From NCBI GenBank assembly GCA_013138965.1, contig WTBT01000050.1, positions 4,658 to 68,657 of the forward strand: a stretch of DNA of 64,000 bases. Reading direction: 5' to 3'. A program made the position numbers and the translations under genes. This DNA is from Candidatus Aegiribacteria sp. (lineage in GTDB: Bacteria; Fermentibacterota; Fermentibacteria; Fermentibacterales; JCC-6). The notes under the pieces were generated by a model. The model was not told where the DNA came from. It saw only the letters and a list, made by a program, of their open reading frames with translations, and ran no database searches. Shown in pieces: positions 1-9,264 of this stretch (position 1 is the stretch's first letter; every line of letters starts with the position of its first letter).

Positions 1-2244
1 GAAGAAGGCTCTTTAGATCAAATGTCTTTCGAAGTTCTTTCAATTCGCTGCCAAATGGAGATTGCCTATCGCCTCAGGTTACTTGACGAGAATTCGAAAG
101 CAGCGGAGAAATTCGACTTCATAATTAATTGCGGATTAAAGAGACTGGAAAGCACAGAGGAAACCCATCCTGACTTTAGGGCTGAGATACTATCCGCTAT
201 TAGCGAAGCAATGAACATTGCAGCTGAAGTAAATTTCAACTTTGAGGAACATAACAGATTGCGTTTAATTCACGAGAGTGTTTCTTTGTGTCGTGATACC
301 TGCTGGGAACTTGCTAGAAACGCAGTGAATCGGGGTTCGAATGATTTTGTCCAACAGCTTTTCGATGATGCTGGAAGGCAGTTCACAGAGGCATTTTTTA
401 GATTTTGGCATTTGCATTCCCTCTCCAATATGGATCGTTTGCATGGGTTTCGTGGTCGACTAGATCTGGCGCGATGCACAAATGGTACAAGCCCAACCAA
501 GATCACTGAATTGGCATTCAAAGCAGCCCTGGCGGGCGCAATCGCATGTGACCAGAAGCTGGTAATCGAGGCTAGGAGAATTCTGGAATCGAGTGGGGCT
601 TCACCGACTAAAACCGAATGCGATGTCCTAAAGAATATGGTTTTTGATGGTAATCTCCTGAGGCGTCGCGAAAAGATTGGTATATGCTTCCTAGCGACGG
701 AGTTCATTGATTACTTCGAAGAGTGTGATATTGATAACCTTATCAAACTCGCTGCCAATTGGTCGCGCGAACCATGGGATCTTTCCACTACTCGAGATGT
801 GGCTCGGAATGCAATCAGGCTCTTGAAAGCAACTTGTAGAGTTCTGTCTGGGTTGGACGATCCCAGCGTATCTGCGATAAAAGTTGCAGAAGCATTAAGG
901 GGTGCAGTTCTGGTTTATCCCAGGGTTGGCCACATACTTCTGGAAGTTGCCGATGTCGCTGATGCAATGGCTGAGATCCCGAGAGAGATTACCAAAGGCG
1001 CTTCAAGAGTGTTACTGGAAATACTTCTTGATTACCACTGGGAGCCAGGCACCATCGGTGAATGGGCATGGACATCAATCATTCGTCCAGCAGTCATACA
1101 CAGCGTTTTGGACGGGGACACTGATCTCTCAACCAAAATATCATCAAAGCTTCCTCCTATTTCCATTAGGAATCAAGACGGATCTGATGTTTCCGATCCT
1201 GAAGGACTGGGGCAAACGAATCTTGTGGAACACGCCATTCAGTATAGGATGTTCTTAGGCATTCATGTTGATGAGGAAATACTTTCGAAATATGTGAATC
1301 AGAAAACCGAAAGATATGTTAAAGATTACTTATCTGAAAAGCCACTCCAATCATTTCCAGGGCAATTTCACCCGTACATCGCATGTGTTAAACAGCTGAA
1401 GGAACGCGATCAAAAGAAAGTGTTGAATACTCTACTGTGTATCTTGATTCTAAAGGAGTTGATGCCAGTTGTGCGATCGGAGGCCCTTTCGGCGCTACGG
1501 TGGTATGTGGAAGTAGCAAGTTCAGAAAGGCAGAATAAGTCAGAGCGGTTCTCGATGCTCACAGACCTTGTCCCCTCCTTAGTTGAAACCCTATGGAAAG
1601 AACTGTCAGAGGGATTAGAGATTGACTGGTCACAAGATCCATTTTCTGGGGCGGCATTTCAGTCTTTTCCGTTGGATGTTGCCTCATTTTTACTTGCTGG
1701 ATGCGAATCAGGTGCTCTTGCATTTCAGAGAATAGGATCACCGAGTCAGATATTATCTGAATGTGTGGTTGAATGGCTTATCAAAGGGAGCTTAAAGAAT
1801 AGGGAGGTTGCGTCAAATTTCCAAGCTTACCAATTTGGGAAAGCTACAGACAGTAGCAAATTTGATGATTTAGAACTAATTTTTATTGAAAGCCTTGTTA
1901 AAGAGAAGGATGAATTAATCCGTCAACAATTATTCGCTGGTCTGGCAGCAGGCATCTCTCGTAGAGGGAAATCACTTCCAGACAAAATGATAAGCAGTAT
2001 TGTCATCGATTGCTGTATTGCTGATTCGAAAAGTTCACATAGAGGAATGGCTCAGAAGGCCACTAACGCTCTTGTAGCGATTCTAAGTACCTCGAAGAAC
2101 GGAGATGACAAATTCGTTGAGGGAATACGAACTAGAGTTAATGAAATGAGGCAAGGTAGTCTTTGGCCTAGGGCATTAGTTTGCACGGCTGATATGCTAT
2201 TTACGGAGGAAAAGGATGAAGTAGCCCCGTCATCCGACGATTAA
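1..2244 (+). CDS. Large all-alpha protein of unknown function (HEAT/ARM-like by composition), possibly 5'-partial
   Basis: ORF track 22..2244 (740 aa). The frame is open from base 1 (gaa gaa ggc tct tta gat caa atg), so the true start may lie upstream of the window. No catalytic motif recognised. Leu/Ala/Glu-rich and helix-like throughout. Confidence 0.5.
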   Translation, partial: EEGSLDQMSFEVLSIRCQMEIAYRLRLLDENSKAAEKFDFIINCGLKRLESTEETHPDFRAEILSAISEAMNIAAEVNFNFEEHNRLRLIHESVSLCRDTCWELARNAVNRGSNDFVQQLFDDAGRQFTEAFFRFWHLHSLSNMDRLHGFRGRLDLARCTNGTSPTKITELAFKAALAGAIACDQKLVIEARRILESSGASPTKTECDVLKNMVFDGNLLRRREKIGICFLATEFIDYFEECDIDNLIKLAANWSREPWDLSTTRDVARNAIRLLKATCRVLSGLDDPSVSAIKVAEALRGAVLVYPRVGHILLEVADVADAMAEIPREITKGASRVLLEILLDYHWEPGTIGEWAWTSIIRPAVIHSVLDGDTDLSTKISSKLPPISIRNQDGSDVSDPEGLGQTNLVEHAIQYRMFLGIHVDEEILSKYVNQKTERYVKDYLSEKPLQSFPGQFHPYIACVKQLKERDQKKVLNTLLCILILKELMPVVRSEALSALRWYVEVASSERQNKSERFSMLTDLVPSLVETLWKELSEGLEIDWSQDPFSGAAFQSFPLDVASFLLAGCESGALAFQRIGSPSQILSECVVEWLIKGSLKNREVASNFQAYQFGKATDSSKFDDLELIFIESLVKEKDELIRQQLFAGLAAGISRRGKSLPDKMISSIVIDCCIADSKSSHRGMAQKATNALVAILSTSKNGDDKFVEGIRTRVNEMRQGSLWPRALVCTADMLFTEEKDEVAPSSDD

Positions 2245-2568: not shown

Positions 2569-3876
2569 ATGCATGAAGCCATGCAAGCATTCAATGAGTA
2601 CAATGTCAAGCTTGCCAATTTGTATCAAGAGATTGTTTTTGGGAAATTGCATATGCAGACTGAATTGCAGGTGACTGCTGATATGGTTGCTGCTGAGTTA
2701 CGACGCATTATCCCGATTGACCGTTTGCGAAAGGCGGGGAGTTTCTTTACCGGTGATGTTCTGGCAGGCAGGGCAGCTGGGTCGGTTTCAGATCATGGGT
2801 TGATTCTGGATCCTGCTTGTGGAGCAGGGAGCCTACTAACTGCTTTTACAAAGAAACTTCCAATAGAGACTACACTTGCTGATACCTTGCGAGAATGGGG
2901 AAGGATATTGTACGGGTGTGATCTCTTCCCGGAATTTGTTGAGGCTACCAAATTGCGTATCATCCTGGAGGCTATAAGCAGAGGAGTTCAACTCAACGGG
3001 GATTCTCTGGATGAGCTAAAGGATTTACTGTATGGAATTAAACAGGGTGATGGTCTTGGGTTGGTTCCTCCAGAAACATGTACTCATGTATTGATGAATC
3101 CTCCATTTAGATTAGTTCCTGCTCCTGCAAACTGTCAGTGGGCAAAGGGTAAACTGAATGAAGCTGCTCTTTTTGTAGAATACTATTTACAACGGATTCC
3201 AGAGAATTGTACTTTGATTGCTATTCTACCTGAAGTGTTGAGATGTGGCACTCGATACAAGAAGTGGAGAACCTGGCTCGAAGTGAATATCACTGCAGAA
3301 GTGATGCTCAATGGGCAGTTTGATACTAAAACAGATGTTGATGTATTTGTGTTCGCTGCATCAAGATTGTCTACACAGAAACCGAGTATGAATAGGATTG
3401 ACTGGAAAACACAAATTGATGAACCGACAGATCTTACCGTTGGTTCTTTGTTCGATGTGAGGGTTGGTTCTGTGGTGCCTTACAGGGATGAGATTGCAGG
3501 AGACGAATATCCTTATGCTTGTCCTTCGAACTTACCTCGCTGGAGAATTGTAAGCGAGTTCGAGAATCGCTGCGGGTACGCCGGTCGAAAGATCAATCCT
3601 CCATTTGTGGCAATCAGGCGGACTTCCAGTCCATCCGACAGAGAGAGAGCGGCAGCAACAATTGTTACAGGCAAAGAAGCGGTTGCAGTGGAGAATCATC
3701 TAATTGTTGCATGTCCTCGCAAGGACGGTTTGCGTGCATGTAAAAGGCTGCTGAAACTGCTGCGAAGCGCTGAAACCAACAGGTTTCTTAATCAGCGAAT
3801 GCGTTGTCGTCATCTGACTGTTGGCGCTGTAAAGGAGATCAATTGGCAGGAGGAGATTCATGCCGGAACTGATTGA
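2569..3876 (+). CDS. N6-adenine DNA methyltransferase, gamma-class motif order (Eco57I/TaqI-like) with a C-terminal putative target-recognition region
   Basis: SAM-binding motif I is LDPACGAGSLL. Catalytic motif IV is NPPF (VLMNPPFRL, codons at 3097-3108). Motif I precedes motif IV. The track ORF starts at TTG 2521, but ATG 2569 is preferred given the promoter at 2508-2516. Confidence 0.8.
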   Translation: MHEAMQAFNEYNVKLANLYQEIVFGKLHMQTELQVTADMVAAELRRIIPIDRLRKAGSFFTGDVLAGRAAGSVSDHGLILDPACGAGSLLTAFTKKLPIETTLADTLREWGRILYGCDLFPEFVEATKLRIILEAISRGVQLNGDSLDELKDLLYGIKQGDGLGLVPPETCTHVLMNPPFRLVPAPANCQWAKGKLNEAALFVEYYLQRIPENCTLIAILPEVLRCGTRYKKWRTWLEVNITAEVMLNGQFDTKTDVDVFVFAASRLSTQKPSMNRIDWKTQIDEPTDLTVGSLFDVRVGSVVPYRDEIAGDEYPYACPSNLPRWRIVSEFENRCGYAGRKINPPFVAIRRTSSPSDRERAAATIVTGKEAVAVENHLIVACPRKDGLRACKRLLKLLRSAETNRFLNQRMRCRHLTVGAVKEINWQEEIHAGTD

Positions 3877-6091
3877 AAGTTTGCCATTTGAAATAGAAGC
3901 ACGCGTTCCTATTCAGCTTGGCCGTGAGAGTATTTCCAGTTCGGTGGTGGCGGTATCCGAACTGGTTAAAAATGCATACGATGCAGATGCAAACAAAGTG
4001 AATATTGAATTTCACAATCTTGGTCAACCAGATGCCTGGCTTCTGATTCAGGACGACGGTGACGGAATGGATTCTGGTTCATTTGCCAATCATTGGATGC
4101 GTATTGGTACTGACTCCAAGACGGACGTATCAAGGTCAAAAAAGAACAGGATACTTACTGGATCAAAGGGTCTTGGACGGCTGGGTATTGATCGATTGTG
4201 CAAAACTCTCACAGTACGGACAAAAACATCTTCCACAACAGATACAATTGAGGCCAGAATAGATTGGACTAAGTATGAACTAAAAGGTAAAACTCTTTCA
4301 GAGATAAAACACAACATTTACCGGATTGCTTTGGGAGAAACCGACTCATTTCCCGAAGCTGATGACCACGGCACTAGTCTCATAATGAATGACCTGAAAG
4401 ATGGGTGGTCTAAGGATTTCCTGAGAGATCTCAGGCAGGAGTTGAGCCTCCTTGTGTCTCCATTTGAAGGCATTGAAGATTTTGCTATTGAATTAAAAAC
4501 AGGCATCAATGAACTAGACGGTCCATTGTTATCAACTGTAATGCTCGAAAGTGCTGTGTGGAAACTTGACTTTACATTGACTGAAGATGGTCAGGTTACA
4601 GCAAGAGCTTCATCTGCTCTTTACGGTGAAGATTGTTTTGACGGCCCACACGCCTGGCAAGAATGGTTAAAGGATAGAAGTGATGAACCTTGTTGCGGAG
4701 GGTTTAAGTTAGTTTTGTATTTTATTCCGGCAGATGCGCCGGGATTGAAGAAACTCAGTTTCTCACGGAAGGACTGGAAGACTTTCATGGATGCGAATAG
4801 TGGTGTACGTATCTATCGTGATAAATTCCGAGTTCGTCCATATGGAGAGCCCACAGGAAAGGGTGACTGGCTGGATCTTGGTCTGAGGCGTTCTAAGAGA
4901 CCAGAGGGTGTTACTCAGAAAGGTTGGGTTATTGGACCACACCAGGTTGTTGGCGCGGCATTCATCAGCAGAGAGAGTAATCCTGAGCTTGTTGATCAGA
5001 CTAATCGTGAGGGAATTGTTGAGGGAGAAGCGTTTTTTGACTTGCGTGTATCTGTTCTAAAGGCAATCACTTTTTTCGAGCAGAAAATACACGAAAGTGC
5101 TGTTAAACGTAAAAATACGAAACCAGCTGATAAAACCAAAGATATGTATGCCGCTGCCCAGGACGAATACCGGAAAAAGTTGAACAATGTCCTAAAGAAA
5201 GCATCTGCTCAGAATCAAAACACAGACGATTTTAAGGCACTCCTTGCTGGTTTTTCAAATGTGGTAGCTGCTGCTGATGATATGCATAGTTCAACTGAGC
5301 AGATAATCAAGGAGATACAAGCAGACAAGGACACAATGGCCAATCTTGCGTCATTGGGTATCCTGACAGTTTGTTTTGGTCATGAAGCAAAGGAATACAC
5401 TAATCTTGCAGCAGCGAATGCAGTTCTTCTCCTGCGAGCGTACCAACAAGGTCATTTTCATATGATGGCTCCGCACGACGATGAATTTATGAACAAGATT
5501 GAAATAATTCAGGATAGTACAGAATTCATAAAAACATTTGCTGGATTCGCATTGGGTAATGTACGCCCTGACAAGCGAAAGCGAACTAATGTCAACTTGA
5601 CAAAAGTAATTAATTCGGTGTTCATAGCAATGGATAAGTCACTTGAACGACAAAACATCGATATTGATTGCTCAGGAGTAGAGGTAAACATACCACCGGT
5701 AAGAGCATTTGAGATTGATCTTGAAAGTATCGTTGTCAACCTGTTAACAAACTCAGTTACTGCCCTTACAGATACTCCGGCAGAGAAGAGAAGAATTGTT
5801 GTTGGGTTGAAGCAGGTTGATGTAGACGTCGAGTTGACTTTTTCTGACTCTGGATGTGGCATCGAAGCTGGAACTGAAAAGCAGATATTCCATCCGATAT
5901 TCAGCACCAAGCGAGATAGGAAGGGTAATGTTGAGGGAACAGGGATGGGACTTGCGATCGTGAAGACTTTCGTTGAAGATCATTCCGGTGGATCAATCAG
6001 GGCTATTCCAAATGGGTCTCTTGGTGGAGCCGAGTTTATCATTCGGATTCCTATTGCTCCACGAAGAGGAGGCAGTGGAAAGGATGAGTAA
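3860..6091 (+). CDS. Soluble histidine kinase with an additional N-terminal MORC/Hsp90-type GHKL ATPase module
   Basis: N-terminal GHKL boxes: ELVKNAYDADA (N box), DDGDGMD (G1), GSKGLGRLG (G2). H-box-like FGHEAKEY, with the His codon at 5381-5383. C-terminal HATPase_c boxes: VNLLTNSVTAL (N), DSGCGI (G1), IFHPIFSTK (F), GTGMGLAIV (G2). No hydrophobic TM segment seen. RBS aggaggag at 3848-3855. The ATG overlaps the MTase 3' end by 17 nt. Confidence 0.75.
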   Translation: MPELIESLPFEIEARVPIQLGRESISSSVVAVSELVKNAYDADANKVNIEFHNLGQPDAWLLIQDDGDGMDSGSFANHWMRIGTDSKTDVSRSKKNRILTGSKGLGRLGIDRLCKTLTVRTKTSSTTDTIEARIDWTKYELKGKTLSEIKHNIYRIALGETDSFPEADDHGTSLIMNDLKDGWSKDFLRDLRQELSLLVSPFEGIEDFAIELKTGINELDGPLLSTVMLESAVWKLDFTLTEDGQVTARASSALYGEDCFDGPHAWQEWLKDRSDEPCCGGFKLVLYFIPADAPGLKKLSFSRKDWKTFMDANSGVRIYRDKFRVRPYGEPTGKGDWLDLGLRRSKRPEGVTQKGWVIGPHQVVGAAFISRESNPELVDQTNREGIVEGEAFFDLRVSVLKAITFFEQKIHESAVKRKNTKPADKTKDMYAAAQDEYRKKLNNVLKKASAQNQNTDDFKALLAGFSNVVAAADDMHSSTEQIIKEIQADKDTMANLASLGILTVCFGHEAKEYTNLAAANAVLLLRAYQQGHFHMMAPHDDEFMNKIEIIQDSTEFIKTFAGFALGNVRPDKRKRTNVNLTKVINSVFIAMDKSLERQNIDIDCSGVEVNIPPVRAFEIDLESIVVNLLTNSVTALTDTPAEKRRIVVGLKQVDVDVELTFSDSGCGIEAGTEKQIFHPIFSTKRDRKGNVEGTGMGLAIVKTFVEDHSGGSIRAIPNGSLGGAEFIIRIPIAPRRGGSGKDE

Positions 6092-6737
6092 TCAAAAAAA
6101 AGTTCTCTGGATTGACGAGGAACCAAGAGCTCTCTCTACCTTTACTGTATTTCTTCAGGAGTGTTTTGGTGACGAAATTACTGTTATTCCTAAAGCACCT
6201 GAAAGAAAGCTGGGTGAAATGATTGACTATATTTCCAATCAGCAGAACCTGGTGGCTCTTGTGGTTGATCAGCGGTTGAAATCCACTGGAATGGCGGAAT
6301 ACTCTGGTATAGACCTGATCGAGAGGGTTCGAGGTTTATTCCCAATACTTCCAATCTACATTCTGACAAATCATCAGGATGATATTGGTGATTTGGATTA
6401 CCAGGTTGAATATGTTTTAGAGAAAGATAATCTCTATGATGATAGCTACATTAAGACCTTGAAGGCGAGAGTTCGCCGTCATGTTGATGTTTATGATGTT
6501 ATCATGTCAGACAGAGAAATCCGTTTTGATGAATTGCTTAGAGCATCGCTTGAGCGTGAGTTGAACTCTGATGAGATGAAAGAAATGCAAGAGCTTGATT
6601 TTCGAAGATCGAAGCCTGTTCTTGCCGATGAGTTCATATGGGCTGAGAAGCTGAAGGAAAAACTTGACCAGCAGTCTGAGTTGCTGGATCGTCTTCGTCA
6701 GGATATTGAATCTAATCAGAGTAAACCGGAGAAGTGA
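6084..6737 (+). CDS. Stand-alone response-regulator receiver (REC) domain protein with a C-terminal coiled-coil tail and no DNA-binding output
   Basis: Receiver signature residues are all present: acidic pair in LWIDEEP, phospho-acceptor-like Asp in LVVDQRL (GAT 6267-6269), Thr in YILTNH, Lys in YVLEKD. The last roughly 90 aa are charged heptad-like sequence. ATG 6084 overlaps the kinase stop (atgagtaa). The track start at 5973 is rejected because it lies inside the kinase gene. Confidence 0.65.
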   Translation: MSNQKKVLWIDEEPRALSTFTVFLQECFGDEITVIPKAPERKLGEMIDYISNQQNLVALVVDQRLKSTGMAEYSGIDLIERVRGLFPILPIYILTNHQDDIGDLDYQVEYVLEKDNLYDDSYIKTLKARVRRHVDVYDVIMSDREIRFDELLRASLERELNSDEMKEMQELDFRRSKPVLADEFIWAEKLKEKLDQQSELLDRLRQDIESNQSKPEK

Positions 6738-7378
6738 TGACAATCGATAACCTGTTTTACCCAACCATTAAGCGGCGATCAACTTATATAGGCAAGGGTG
6801 ATGGGCAGGTCTCTCGCTATTCTGATTATCGCGATGAGATTCAGGAAGACTGTGGGAATCGCTGTGTCTATTGCGACATCAAACATGCAGAGATTGGCTA
6901 TGAGGGGATGCATCTGGACCATTTCCGCCCACAGAAACACTTTCCTGGACTAACTGATAACCCAACCAATCTGGTTCTTGCCTGTCCAAAATGTAATAGC
7001 TTTAAATCGTACAAGTGGCCTGCTTTCAAGAGAATAAATGCGTGTTCACATGAAGGAAAAACTGGTTTTATTGACCCTTTCGAAGAGTCTCGAAAAGAGT
7101 ACTTTGCAGTGAGTACTGATGGGTCTCTGCTCCCTCTTATGGATCCCGCAGAGTATTTAATTATACTGATGAAACTAAATCGAACAGCCCGTATTCAAGT
7201 GCGCCGCAATCGTATCATCCGACATGAGATGAAAAAGTTGTCAGGAAAGCTTGAGAACTTGATCTCTGATCTTATTACAGACTGGAAAGCTGAACGAATC
7301 TCTGCTGATGAGGCTATGCGTTCTATGGAACAGCACTGCTTGAGACTGGTTTCACTAGCGGAAATGATGACTGTCTAG
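6734..7378 (+). CDS. HNH endonuclease (resembles the PtuB/TIGR02646 style from memory) with a helical C-terminal extension
   Basis: CGNRCVYC...HLDHFRPQKH...NLVLACPKCNSFK gives the Cys4 zinc sites plus the catalytic D-H and Asn of the beta-beta-alpha-Me fold. GTG 6734 or ATG 6737 overlaps the REC stop TGA (6735-6737). Confidence 0.8.
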   Translation: MMTIDNLFYPTIKRRSTYIGKGDGQVSRYSDYRDEIQEDCGNRCVYCDIKHAEIGYEGMHLDHFRPQKHFPGLTDNPTNLVLACPKCNSFKSYKWPAFKRINACSHEGKTGFIDPFEESRKEYFAVSTDGSLLPLMDPAEYLIILMKLNRTARIQVRRNRIIRHEMKKLSGKLENLISDLITDWKAERISADEAMRSMEQHCLRLVSLAEMMTV

Positions 7379-7783: not shown

Positions 7784-8614
7784 TCAGGAGAGCAGACGAT
7801 CAAGGTAGTGAATGAACAGTTCACGATTCCATCCATTAAGTGTACTGCGTTCTTCCATGGAGAGGAATGGGTACACATCGCGAGCAGTCTTATCCCAGTT
7901 CAAAGACTCGATCCTGCAGCTGAGTTGATCTCTGAGCCATATGCGGTTAACATTGATGCCCTGGCGCGCCCACGGTCCGTTCTGGTCGATTGCCGTGGAA
8001 AGCAGCTCCATTTCAGGATGGATATCTCTGGAGCAGAACCAGAGGAAATCGAACCAGTCTCTCCCTTTAACCCATGACCTGCACAAAAGTGCATGGCACT
8101 TCAAAGCGAACGATGAGGGGAGGTCCATCACTGAAACCTCGAAGGGTATGGGGAAGTCTATGAATGCGGTTTGGATGTGAGCTCCCTCAGGGGGATTTAC
8201 ATCAACTTCAAGTCTGATCCTTAAGAAAGGAGTTCTGCCATCAGATGAGCTTCCGAGAATAGAAGTATCAATCAGAAGAAGCTTGCGGATAGATGAGCGT
8301 TCCGAGCCTTCAGTGCGCAGTTCAATATCGAGACCGTAATTGGAAAAGGTTCTGAGGAGCGCTTTTTCGCATAAAGACCATGAGAATGAGTTGTCAGGTT
8401 CCGTGAGTACAAAATCGAGGTCTTCGGAGAACCTTGGCAGAGCGTGAATAAGCCGAAGTTCTGTTCCACCGTGGAACACCGCCCTGCTGAAAAAATCGTT
8501 CACCGAGAGGGAATAAAGAGCAATTTCCTGCATGATCTCCCGGAGAGCGTGAACGCGGGTCTCCCGGGAAGTTGAGCCATATTCCTCAAGTCTTGATTCA
8601 ATAATGTTTTTCAT
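7784..8614 (-). CDS. abiEii: AbiEii/AbiGii-family nucleotidyltransferase toxin (type IV TA / abortive infection)
   Basis: FHGGTELRLIHALPRFSEDLDF matches the DUF1814/AbiEii NTase signature. The start is taken at MKNIIESRLEEY (ATG 8614-8612), which overlaps the upstream stop as ATGA. The track start at 8773 lies inside abiEi. Confidence 0.75.
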   Translation of the reverse strand: MKNIIESRLEEYGSTSRETRVHALREIMQEIALYSLSVNDFFSRAVFHGGTELRLIHALPRFSEDLDFVLTEPDNSFSWSLCEKALLRTFSNYGLDIELRTEGSERSSIRKLLLIDTSILGSSSDGRTPFLRIRLEVDVNPPEGAHIQTAFIDFPIPFEVSVMDLPSSFALKCHALLCRSWVKGRDWFDFLWFCSRDIHPEMELLSTAIDQNGPWARQGINVNRIWLRDQLSCRIESLNWDKTARDVYPFLSMEERSTLNGWNRELFIHYLDRLLS

Positions 8615-9264
8615 GACCCTCCATCCAGGGCGCTGGCGCACCGGGAGAGGAAGTTCCGAGCTTTTGCTGAACGGTAGATGAGAGAGATCTCTCTGAGATC
8701 GTCTGTATTGATTTCGCTGAGATTCGATACATCCGTGCGTAGAGCCGCACAGAGTCCAAGAATCCCCTCCCACTTGAGTCTGCGGTCATATACTAAATCA
8801 CCGATTGCTCTCTCGGGAGATGCAACCAGGGCATACCCGTTCGGAAGGGTTTCCCTCAATACACACTTGTAGAAATCACTATCGGCAACAGGGATGCGTG
8901 TATATTCAAAACTACCCAGCGCATTCCTGAATGTTCTTTCTCTTCCGCGGACAATACAGCTTTGAACGAGCATAGGCTCTTCCTGCAGCCATCCAAAGTA
9001 GGCAAGGGCTGATTCCATAGTAACGTAGCTTTCAGGGGCAAGCCTGTTCGCGATACTCAAACTGCTGATCTCCATTCGTGATAAAGCCGGACTGAGTAAA
9101 TACATTCCGCGCTTCAGGTGAATGAACTCATCACTCTGCAGTGCCCTGTTCACCAGCCCCCACCGACGGGCGTGACTTCCCCCCGCCAGACGAGTGATAA
9201 TTGAAGGGGTGATGATCATTCCGGCGTACTCTGTGTTCAGCACCAGTTCTGTCAGCGTCTCCAT
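8611..9264 (-). CDS. abiEi: AbiEi-family antitoxin / transcriptional regulator (N-terminal wHTH)
   Basis: Sits immediately upstream of AbiEii with a 4-nt overlap. The N-terminal segment GMIITPSIITRLAGGSHARRWGLVNRALQSDEFIHLKRGMYLL resembles the AbiEi_4 wHTH. Confidence 0.6.
   Translation of the reverse strand: METLTELVLNTEYAGMIITPSIITRLAGGSHARRWGLVNRALQSDEFIHLKRGMYLLSPALSRMEISSLSIANRLAPESYVTMESALAYFGWLQEEPMLVQSCIVRGRERTFRNALGSFEYTRIPVADSDFYKCVLRETLPNGYALVASPERAIGDLVYDRRLKWEGILGLCAALRTDVSNLSEINTDDLREISLIYRSAKARNFLSRCASALDGGS

Follow-up and report, generated by a model that had tools for sequence, protein, structure and literature searches.

What can a soluble histidine kinase sense when a second ATPase occupies the position of its sensor domain? 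The question is raised by an open reading frame (ORF) at positions 3860-6091 in a 64,000-nucleotide (nt) stretch of Candidatus Aegiribacteria sp. (assembly GCA_013138965.1, contig WTBT01000050.1, positions 4,658 to 68,657), hereafter called the window. Our answer is that this ORF very probably encodes the AbrB-type sensor kinase of an anti-phage cassette of the Ambrosia type, one without the regulator AbrR, in which a MORC-like module would serve as the input to a phosphorelay. Both the architecture and the defence role of Ambrosia are already published; what is new is that the window copy is a phylogenetically distant member of the system.

The cassette and its match to Ambrosia

Ambrosia was described in Pseudomonas aeruginosa as a set of five genes encoding AbrR (XRE), AbrA (N6 methyltransferase), AbrB (kinase/HATPase), AbrC (REC) and AbrD (HNH) (bioRxiv 10.1101/2025.09.30.679545). 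According to that preprint, the system blocks phage, requires all of AbrA to AbrD for defence, and loses its protective effect upon a single substitution in AbrB (N40A), AbrC (D60A) or AbrD (H60A), and methylation by AbrA gives phage no protection. The same authors report Ambrosia only from Gammaproteobacteria, and their detection used AbrA to AbrD alone.

We compared the window proteins with the Ambrosia sequences given in Table S1 of the preprint, and each of the four core components has a counterpart. The window methyltransferase shares 37% identity with AbrA (E 2e-72), the kinase 47% with residues 11-397 of AbrB (388 aligned, AbrB being compared up to residue 399; E 1e-113), the receiver 33% with AbrC (E 2e-31), and the HNH protein 47% with AbrD (E 6e-59), which also shares its PtuB/TIGR02646 matches. 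The core genes are the same four in the same order, and the residues mutated in the preprint are conserved in the window copy: AbrB N40 corresponds to kinase N38, within the ELVKNAYDA motif of the N-terminal GHKL domain, AbrC D60 to receiver D62, and AbrD H60 to nuclease H63. Because homologues of AbrA to AbrD stand in the same order with no regulator upstream, we regard the locus as an Ambrosia-type system without AbrR. The N-terminal GHKL domain is required for defence, since AbrB N40A abolishes it, in a role that the substitution leaves unspecified.

The same four-gene cassette surrounds kinase homologues in Pseudomonas, in a Klebsiella prophage, in an Aegiribacteria metagenome-assembled genome (MAG) whose kinase is 85% identical to that of the window, in a metagenome contig that has an HTH_3 gene upstream and in Bacteroidia. 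A preliminary description of the window, made from its letters alone, had linked the kinase to restriction-modification (R-M) genes and a neighbouring receiver protein, and the methyltransferase, the REC protein and the HNH nuclease do share its operon.

Two GHKL domains in one kinase

That description started from two full sets of Bergerat-fold boxes in one polypeptide of 743 amino acids (aa), and every motif it quoted lies at the implied position in the translation. The N-terminal set comprises ELVKNAYDADA (residues 34-44), DDGDGMD (65-71) and GSKGLGRLG (101-109); the C-terminal set comprises NLLTNSV (627-633), DSGCGI (663-668), IFHPIFSTK (676-684) and GTGMGLAIV (693-701), and an H-box, FGHEAKEY, spans residues 506-513 with H508 as its histidine. 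Pfam assigns HATPase_c_3 to residues 28-146 (E 2.4e-22) and HATPase_c to residues 618-733 (E 6.1e-24). Among 40 kinase homologues with 43-85% identity, D65, G101-G109, H508, E509, N627, N631, D663, G665, G667, F677 and G693-G697 show no variation; for E34 and N38 conservation is at least 90%. The same ATP-site and H508-E509 residues remain at least 90% conserved in 90 relatives with only 24-35% identity. The two-GHKL architecture is thus real, far beyond chance. The absence of a conventional sensor was also borne out: Pfam finds no PAS, GAF or TPR domain in the kinase, and no transmembrane helix is expected, because the highest 19-residue Kyte-Doolittle mean is only 1.12.

As had been anticipated from its boxes, the N-terminal region adopts a MORC/MutL-type GHKL fold. 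Bergerat motifs I-IV, including the catalytic Glu and the Mg-binding Asn, are present and conserved. A family sequence profile searched against Protein Data Bank (PDB) sequences matches MORC3, MutL and PMS1 at residues ~24-128. An AlphaFold2 (AF2) model of the kinase was built from a 40-sequence alignment (mean pLDDT 81). Compared with the PDB by Foldseek, it finds counterparts for its N-terminal ~450-500 residues in the ATPase modules of SMCHD1, MORC2 (DNA complexes among them), MORC3 and Hsp90/GRP94 (TMt 0.35-0.55, E ~1e-11 to 1e-10). Between 450 and 509 columns align to the GHKL and transducer domains of SMCHD1 (6mw7), MORC2 (9cdh/9cdj) and MORC3 (6o1e), with a TMt (TM-score normalised to the target) of only 0.44-0.55.

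The roughly 300 aa between the two sets of boxes had been said to contain a coiled-coil-like stretch, which holds for the linker at residues 390-454. The interval is not merely coiled coil, however, and also houses a middle domain (~180-388) and a DHp-like hairpin (455-566). The middle domain occupies the position of the MORC/Hsp90 transducer and, judged from the model, is likely to be its equivalent of the S5 type. It carries the strongest motif block of the family, formed by G315, R317, Y319, D321, F323-R324-V325, P327, G329 and D336-W337 and continued by Q362, G365-A366, N374, D379-Q380 and N382-R383-E384.

H508 falls inside the modelled hairpin, in a helix (455-529) that pairs with a second one (539-566) just before the catalytic (CA) domain. 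The C-terminal part of the model resembles DHp-plus-CA structures of YF1, ZraS, CpxA and HK853 (Foldseek E ~1e-12 to 1e-10), and alignments of NCBIfam kinase models to the window kinase begin at residue ~477-495. The GHKL fold of the N-terminal region and the placement of H508, the two computational checks by which the structural reading could have failed, thus both came out for it. Pfam HisKA has no match to the DHp, and the DHp segment alone, searched against PDB sequences, returns chance alpha-repeat matches and no kinase. Because Pfam HisKA, Pfam HEF_HK and the segment search are all blank, the DHp is assigned from the AF2 model, from the invariant H-E pair and from matches of the whole domain. 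The kinase is most likely a homodimer.

The H-box reads H-E-A-K-E from H508 to E512 (5381-5395), with Glu at H+4 in place of Thr or Asn. A 2026 preprint on HisKA profiles links Thr or Asn at this position to phosphatase activity and notes that PF19191 likewise lacks them. With Glu at H+4, the kinase may not act on its receiver as a phosphatase in the usual way.

Relatives, effectors and genomic neighbourhood

The kinase belongs to a large family. With its N-terminal 480 residues, 710 representatives of clusters at 50% identity are retrieved at E <= 1e-30, and most relatives among the matches listed are ~680-790 aa long. A scan of one genome per species finds relatives in most bacterial phyla, with a count of at least 586 genomes. 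Both ATP sites, H508-E509 and the D/D/T/K residues of the receiver are retained down to ~25% identity.

We typed the best 80 species-level loci by jackhmmer and checked samples with Pfam. The commonest order is kinase, receiver, HNH and methyltransferase (30 of the 80), followed by that of the window, with the methyltransferase first (14); three loci have kinase, receiver and HNH alone, and one has kinase, HNH and methyltransferase with no receiver detected, so that HNH is the effector in 48 loci. In 18 others the kinase is followed by a 340-414-aa receiver fused to a domain of ~250 aa, and in 11 by a short receiver, with or without a methyltransferase and with no HNH. The remaining three show the kinase alone, some of them on short contigs. 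In 76 loci the gene right after that of the kinase encodes a receiver, and the phosphoacceptor position is fixed: each of the 77 sequences aligned (the window protein and 76 relatives) has the Asp (D62) and T/S95. Since the receiver follows the kinase in nearly every locus while HNH, MBL-fold and fused domains vary, kinase and receiver form a constant unit with an exchangeable effector.

Two alternative effectors recur. An MBL-fold (Lactamase_B) hydrolase stands in place of HNH right after the receiver in four of the loci with a short receiver and no HNH (L052:7642-8694, L074:7707-8744, L083:7709-8695 and L088:7737-8756), and a plasmid locus has the same arrangement (L010:8790-9797). In the ~250-aa C-terminal domain fused to the receiver, the motifs 'SCD' and 'ERYxFLPG...VVDFQ' are conserved; neither Pfam nor NCBIfam gives a match to it, and no separate HNH gene accompanies it. 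This may be a new, phosphorylation-controlled effector domain. It occurs at L036:7036-8190 and in L037, L041, L042, L048, L051, L062-L065, L070, L071, L073, L075, L077, L081, L082 and L089, as well as on Campylobacter plasmids (L011:7168-8190).

Plasmid copies of the family show the same variety of arrangements, and one Klebsiella copy sits in a prophage. Phage genomes yielded a single partial match in 50,697 records, and sequenced phages therefore do not commonly carry the system. Among the best 80 loci, the sole archaeal one comes from a Nitrosopumilus sp. MAG (L032, OZ252092.1), in which a kinase relative with 28% identity is followed by a receiver and a 199-aa ORF without a family match.

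In the window, the four genes form an operon in which starts overlap stops (Table 1). The methyltransferase stop and the kinase start overlap by 17 nt, the receiver start overlaps the kinase stop as ATGAGTAA, and the start of the HNH gene overlaps the receiver stop. The methyltransferase has the motifs LDPACGAGS and NPPF, matches Pfam N6_Mtase weakly and PADLOC mad2/MTase_II, and has orthologues of 418-455 aa in other loci. The REC fold of the receiver, recognised by AF2 and Foldseek, covers residues 1-140, with the acidic pair D11/E12, D62 (codon 6267-6269), T95 and K114. The nuclease matches PADLOC PtuB (E 2.8e-18) and has two CxxC pairs and its catalytic histidine, H63 in ORF numbering, at codon 6920-6922.

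Table 1. Genes of the cassette and domains of its kinase, in window coordinates
Feature	Position	Strand	Details
AbrA-like N6-adenine DNA methyltransferase	2569..3876	+	435 aa from likely start ATG 2569; ORF opens at TTG 2521
AbrB-like soluble histidine kinase, two GHKL domains	3860..6091	+	743 aa, ATG start; two Pfam domains
N-terminal MORC/MutL-type GHKL ATPase domain, residues ~1-180	3860..4399	+	HATPase_c_3; E34/N38/D41, D65xGxG69, lid G101-G109, G171-T172
Conserved mixed alpha/beta middle domain, residues ~181-388	4400..5023	+	AF2 secondary structure, invariant columns, Foldseek
Helical coiled-coil-like linker, residues ~390-454	5027..5221	+	AF2 helices 390-417, 422-449
DHp-like helical hairpin, residues 455-566	5222..5557	+	AF2 helices 455-529, 539-566; H508 codon 5381-5383
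C-terminal catalytic (CA) GHKL domain, N/G1/F/G2 boxes, residues ~575-735	5582..6064	+	HATPase_c; PDB kinase matches E 4e-19
AbrC-like receiver protein	6084..6737	+	217 aa from ATG 6084; mechanical ORF opens at TTG 5973
AbrD-like HNH endonuclease, PtuB/TIGR02646-like	6737..7378	+	likely start ATG 6737 (ORF opens at GTG 6734); Pfam HNH E 1.3e-9

Upstream of the methyltransferase gene, the interval 2244-2568 (277-325 nt) contains no ORF of at least 40 aa and no helix-turn-helix (HTH) that could represent a regulator. A scan of 2240-2580 and the operon returned six promoter-like sites, below the 10.2 expected from shuffles, four terminator-like sites (4.2 expected) and no convincing operator-like repeat. 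AbrR is also absent from two relatives, L007 and the 85%-identical L004, but is present in L006 as a 72-aa HTH_3 gene.

About 400 nt downstream of the cassette, the reverse strand carries a gene for an AbiEii nucleotidyltransferase toxin (7784-8773, Pfam E 1e-23), overlapped by a 217-aa ORF (8611-9264, reverse strand) that occupies the position of the AbiEi antitoxin and has no Pfam match; cassette, toxin gene and 217-aa ORF together make up a small defence island. An AbiEii fragment also lies near the cassette of L004. On the other side, ORF 22-2244 (forward strand, 740 aa) covers the C-terminal portion of a 988-aa protein that crosses the window edge. It has no family match and a single homologue (47% identity) among 5.8 billion proteins, whose gene start overlaps the Metallophos phosphoesterase gene that it follows (L094). 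We considered this ORF as a fifth component and rejected it, as it is not beside the cassette in the other loci compared, including the 85%-identical relative. The G+C content is 43.7% in the cassette (2569-7378) and 44.4% in the orphan ORF, against 47.7% in the whole window and 48.2% in 9301-64000; because these values lie below the rest of the window, they fit horizontal acquisition of this window end.

Mechanism, rival explanations and known systems

In the mechanism proposed here, the MORC/MutL-like module (GHKL plus middle domain, residues 1 to ~390) would stand in for a ligand-binding sensor. An infection cue would shift the ATP-dependent state of the module, most plausibly when invading or abnormal DNA is clamped by it, and this shift would travel along the helical linker to reach the DHp, where the conserved residues suggest that the CA domain would phosphorylate H508. 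The phosphoryl group would then move to D62 of the downstream receiver, the residue whose replacement in the orthologue (D60A) abolishes defence, and the phosphorylated receiver would switch on the HNH nuclease arm. Taken whole, as a clamp that detects invading or AbrA-unmarked DNA, a His-Asp phosphorelay and a helical receiver tail that licenses the nuclease directly, this phosphorelay-gated restriction is a tentative scheme that we consider unlikely to hold in every part. The preliminary description had proposed that the N-terminal GHKL domain is an input that drives autophosphorylation through ATP-dependent dimerisation on DNA, which is plausible; the idea of HATPase_c_3 as a sensor is not new, having been in print since Bellieny-Rabelo et al. 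2021.

Several points weigh against parts of this reading. The comparison with AbrB ends at residue 399; the HipB-like XRE regulator AbrR that heads the published cluster has no counterpart upstream of the window locus; and the DHp is divergent, to the degree that Pfam HisKA and HEF_HK are blind to it. The AF2 model of the receiver was built on only 12 sequences and has a pLDDT of 79, with lower values in some stretches of the tail. Finally, the preprint reports that infection induces reporters placed in the Ambrosia cluster and that AbrC carries a helix-turn-helix of the winged type (wHTH), and it proposes transcriptional induction as the output (10.1101/2025.09.30.679545); these observations favour a transcriptional output over direct control.

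One rival explanation adheres strictly to that proposal: the receiver would do nothing but regulate transcription, inducing the genes for the methyltransferase and HNH, and the N-terminal GHKL domain would sense a nucleotide or metabolic signal, not DNA. It is in keeping with an earlier speculation that HATPase_c_3 senses nucleoside triphosphate levels (PMC8011034). The window receiver, collinear with AbrC throughout, is however modelled with a tail (6510-6737, residues ~143-217) that has no wHTH: after REC it consists of helices only (residues 143-157 and a long helix, 162-212), with no beta wing, and it has no match to an HTH or other DNA-binding domain in Pfam or among PDB sequences. In addition, 18 of the 80 loci fuse the receiver to a ~250-aa domain that is not an HTH, others pair it with an MBL-fold hydrolase, and the XRE regulator is missing from the window copy and from several relatives. 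A self-inducing kinase-receiver pair would need basal expression in any case, because all four genes lie in one overlapping operon. The all-helical tail, the effectors fused to or paired with the receiver and the frequent absence of the XRE gene together weaken transcription as the only route, and from the modelled tail and the alternative effectors we would judge direct protein-level control of HNH to be at least as likely as transcriptional induction. In its strict form the transcriptional account is possible, though doubtful.

A second explanation, the main rival to a sensing role, places the N-terminal module in the restriction machinery itself, as a DNA-clamping or remodelling ATPase that loads or positions HNH, and leaves the kinase core and receiver only to tune or report. 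The N-terminal ~180 residues match the N terminus of the BbrUII/HgiDII restriction enzymes in NCBIfam (E 6e-22), PADLOC models of Type II restriction enzymes match the N-terminal region (E 2e-11), and DNA-bound MORC2 structures are among the best structural matches. GHKL-nuclease fusions are moreover known in defence, as in VcSduA, a Shedu system with an N-terminal GHKL domain (PMC12137116), and the loss of defence in N40A fits either role. The module is nevertheless always fused to a full, conserved DHp-plus-CA core, the receiver that follows has its complete set of catalytic residues, and the effector varies by lineage while the kinase-receiver pair stays constant, which is the pattern of a sensor-transducer and not of an effector-specific loader. 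We therefore find this explanation improbable. That an ordinary two-component system lies by chance beside an unrelated Type II R-M pair is almost certainly wrong: each component alone does resemble a standard family member, but start/stop overlaps join all four genes, the same genes occur together in 47 of the 80 loci (44 with a methyltransferase and three without one detected) in many phyla and two fixed orders, and all four are required in the characterised orthologue.

Returning to the MORC-like module as the input of an Ambrosia-type phosphorelay, the constant kinase-receiver pair, the swappable effectors and the all-helical tail point to this ATPase as a general intracellular infection sensor with a post-translational output. 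If phosphorelay-gated restriction is true, the loci in at least 586 species genomes would form a very widespread modular family, with a single sensor made up of MORC-like kinase and receiver acting on exchangeable effectors (HNH, an MBL-fold hydrolase or the domain fused to the receiver).

The closest published design apart from Ambrosia is that of Bellieny-Rabelo et al. 2021 (PMC8011034), who described soluble kinases with HATPase_c_3, a new DHp (HEF_HK) and HATPase_c beside a divergent receiver (Response_reg_2) and R-M genes, and who proposed a paraMORC origin and placed HATPase_c_3 in the sensor position, acting as a sensor. The window kinase shares their 'group 1' architecture, solubility, adjacent divergent receiver and link to a methyltransferase and a nuclease. 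We checked both Pfam models on the window proteins and ~70 relatives. HEF_HK (PF19191) has no match at E up to 10 on kinase residues 301-607, nor in 58 + 5 relatives, and Response_reg_2 (PF19192) matches neither the window receiver, which shows only a weak Response_reg match (E 0.024), nor its relatives. The published set also mostly has C5-methyltransferase and Vsr neighbours, whereas the window locus has an N6-methyltransferase and HNH, and we treat those elements as a sister lineage of the same design.

Two other candidates for the identity of the system were tried and rejected. MADS yields weak mad2/MAD2 matches (13.5 bits against a cut-off of 720), and the MADS preprint describes no two-GHKL kinase in its operon. 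The DefensePredictor and Vibrio cholerae WASA papers were considered as possible descriptions under another name, and neither describes it. The NCBIfam LM5578_1851 receiver model matches weakly (29.5 bits against a cut-off of 150).

Among GHKL ATPases, the likeness to MORC, paraMORC and MutL (Iyer, Abhiman & Aravind 2008, as cited in later papers) extends from Bergerat motifs I-IV to the superposition of GHKL and middle domain on MORC2, MORC3 and SMCHD1, though at a TMt of only 0.44-0.55. Gene neighbourhoods with R-M and defence functions are common to both. The window protein differs in being fused to a histidine-kinase core and not to a nuclease, a CW domain or a coiled-coil-only C terminus. 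A precedent for a phosphorelay whose output is not transcriptional is reportedly found in Detocs, an anti-phage system whose histidine kinase passes phosphate to a receiver, which in turn controls an effector domain. Detocs is said to differ from the system in the window in the TPR-type sensor of its kinase, its buffer receiver protein and its nucleosidase effector. Beyond the generic kinase and REC domains no homology to Detocs was seen, and no search aimed at it was made.

Ambrosia itself remains the nearest known system. Its preprint hosts are Gammaproteobacteria, whereas the window host is an Aegiribacteria-like bacterium of the FCB group, with its closest kinase homologue at 85% identity. 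The Ambrosia design thus extends far beyond Gammaproteobacteria, to most bacterial phyla, plasmids, a prophage and one archaeal MAG, and the XRE regulator is dispensable for its conserved core.

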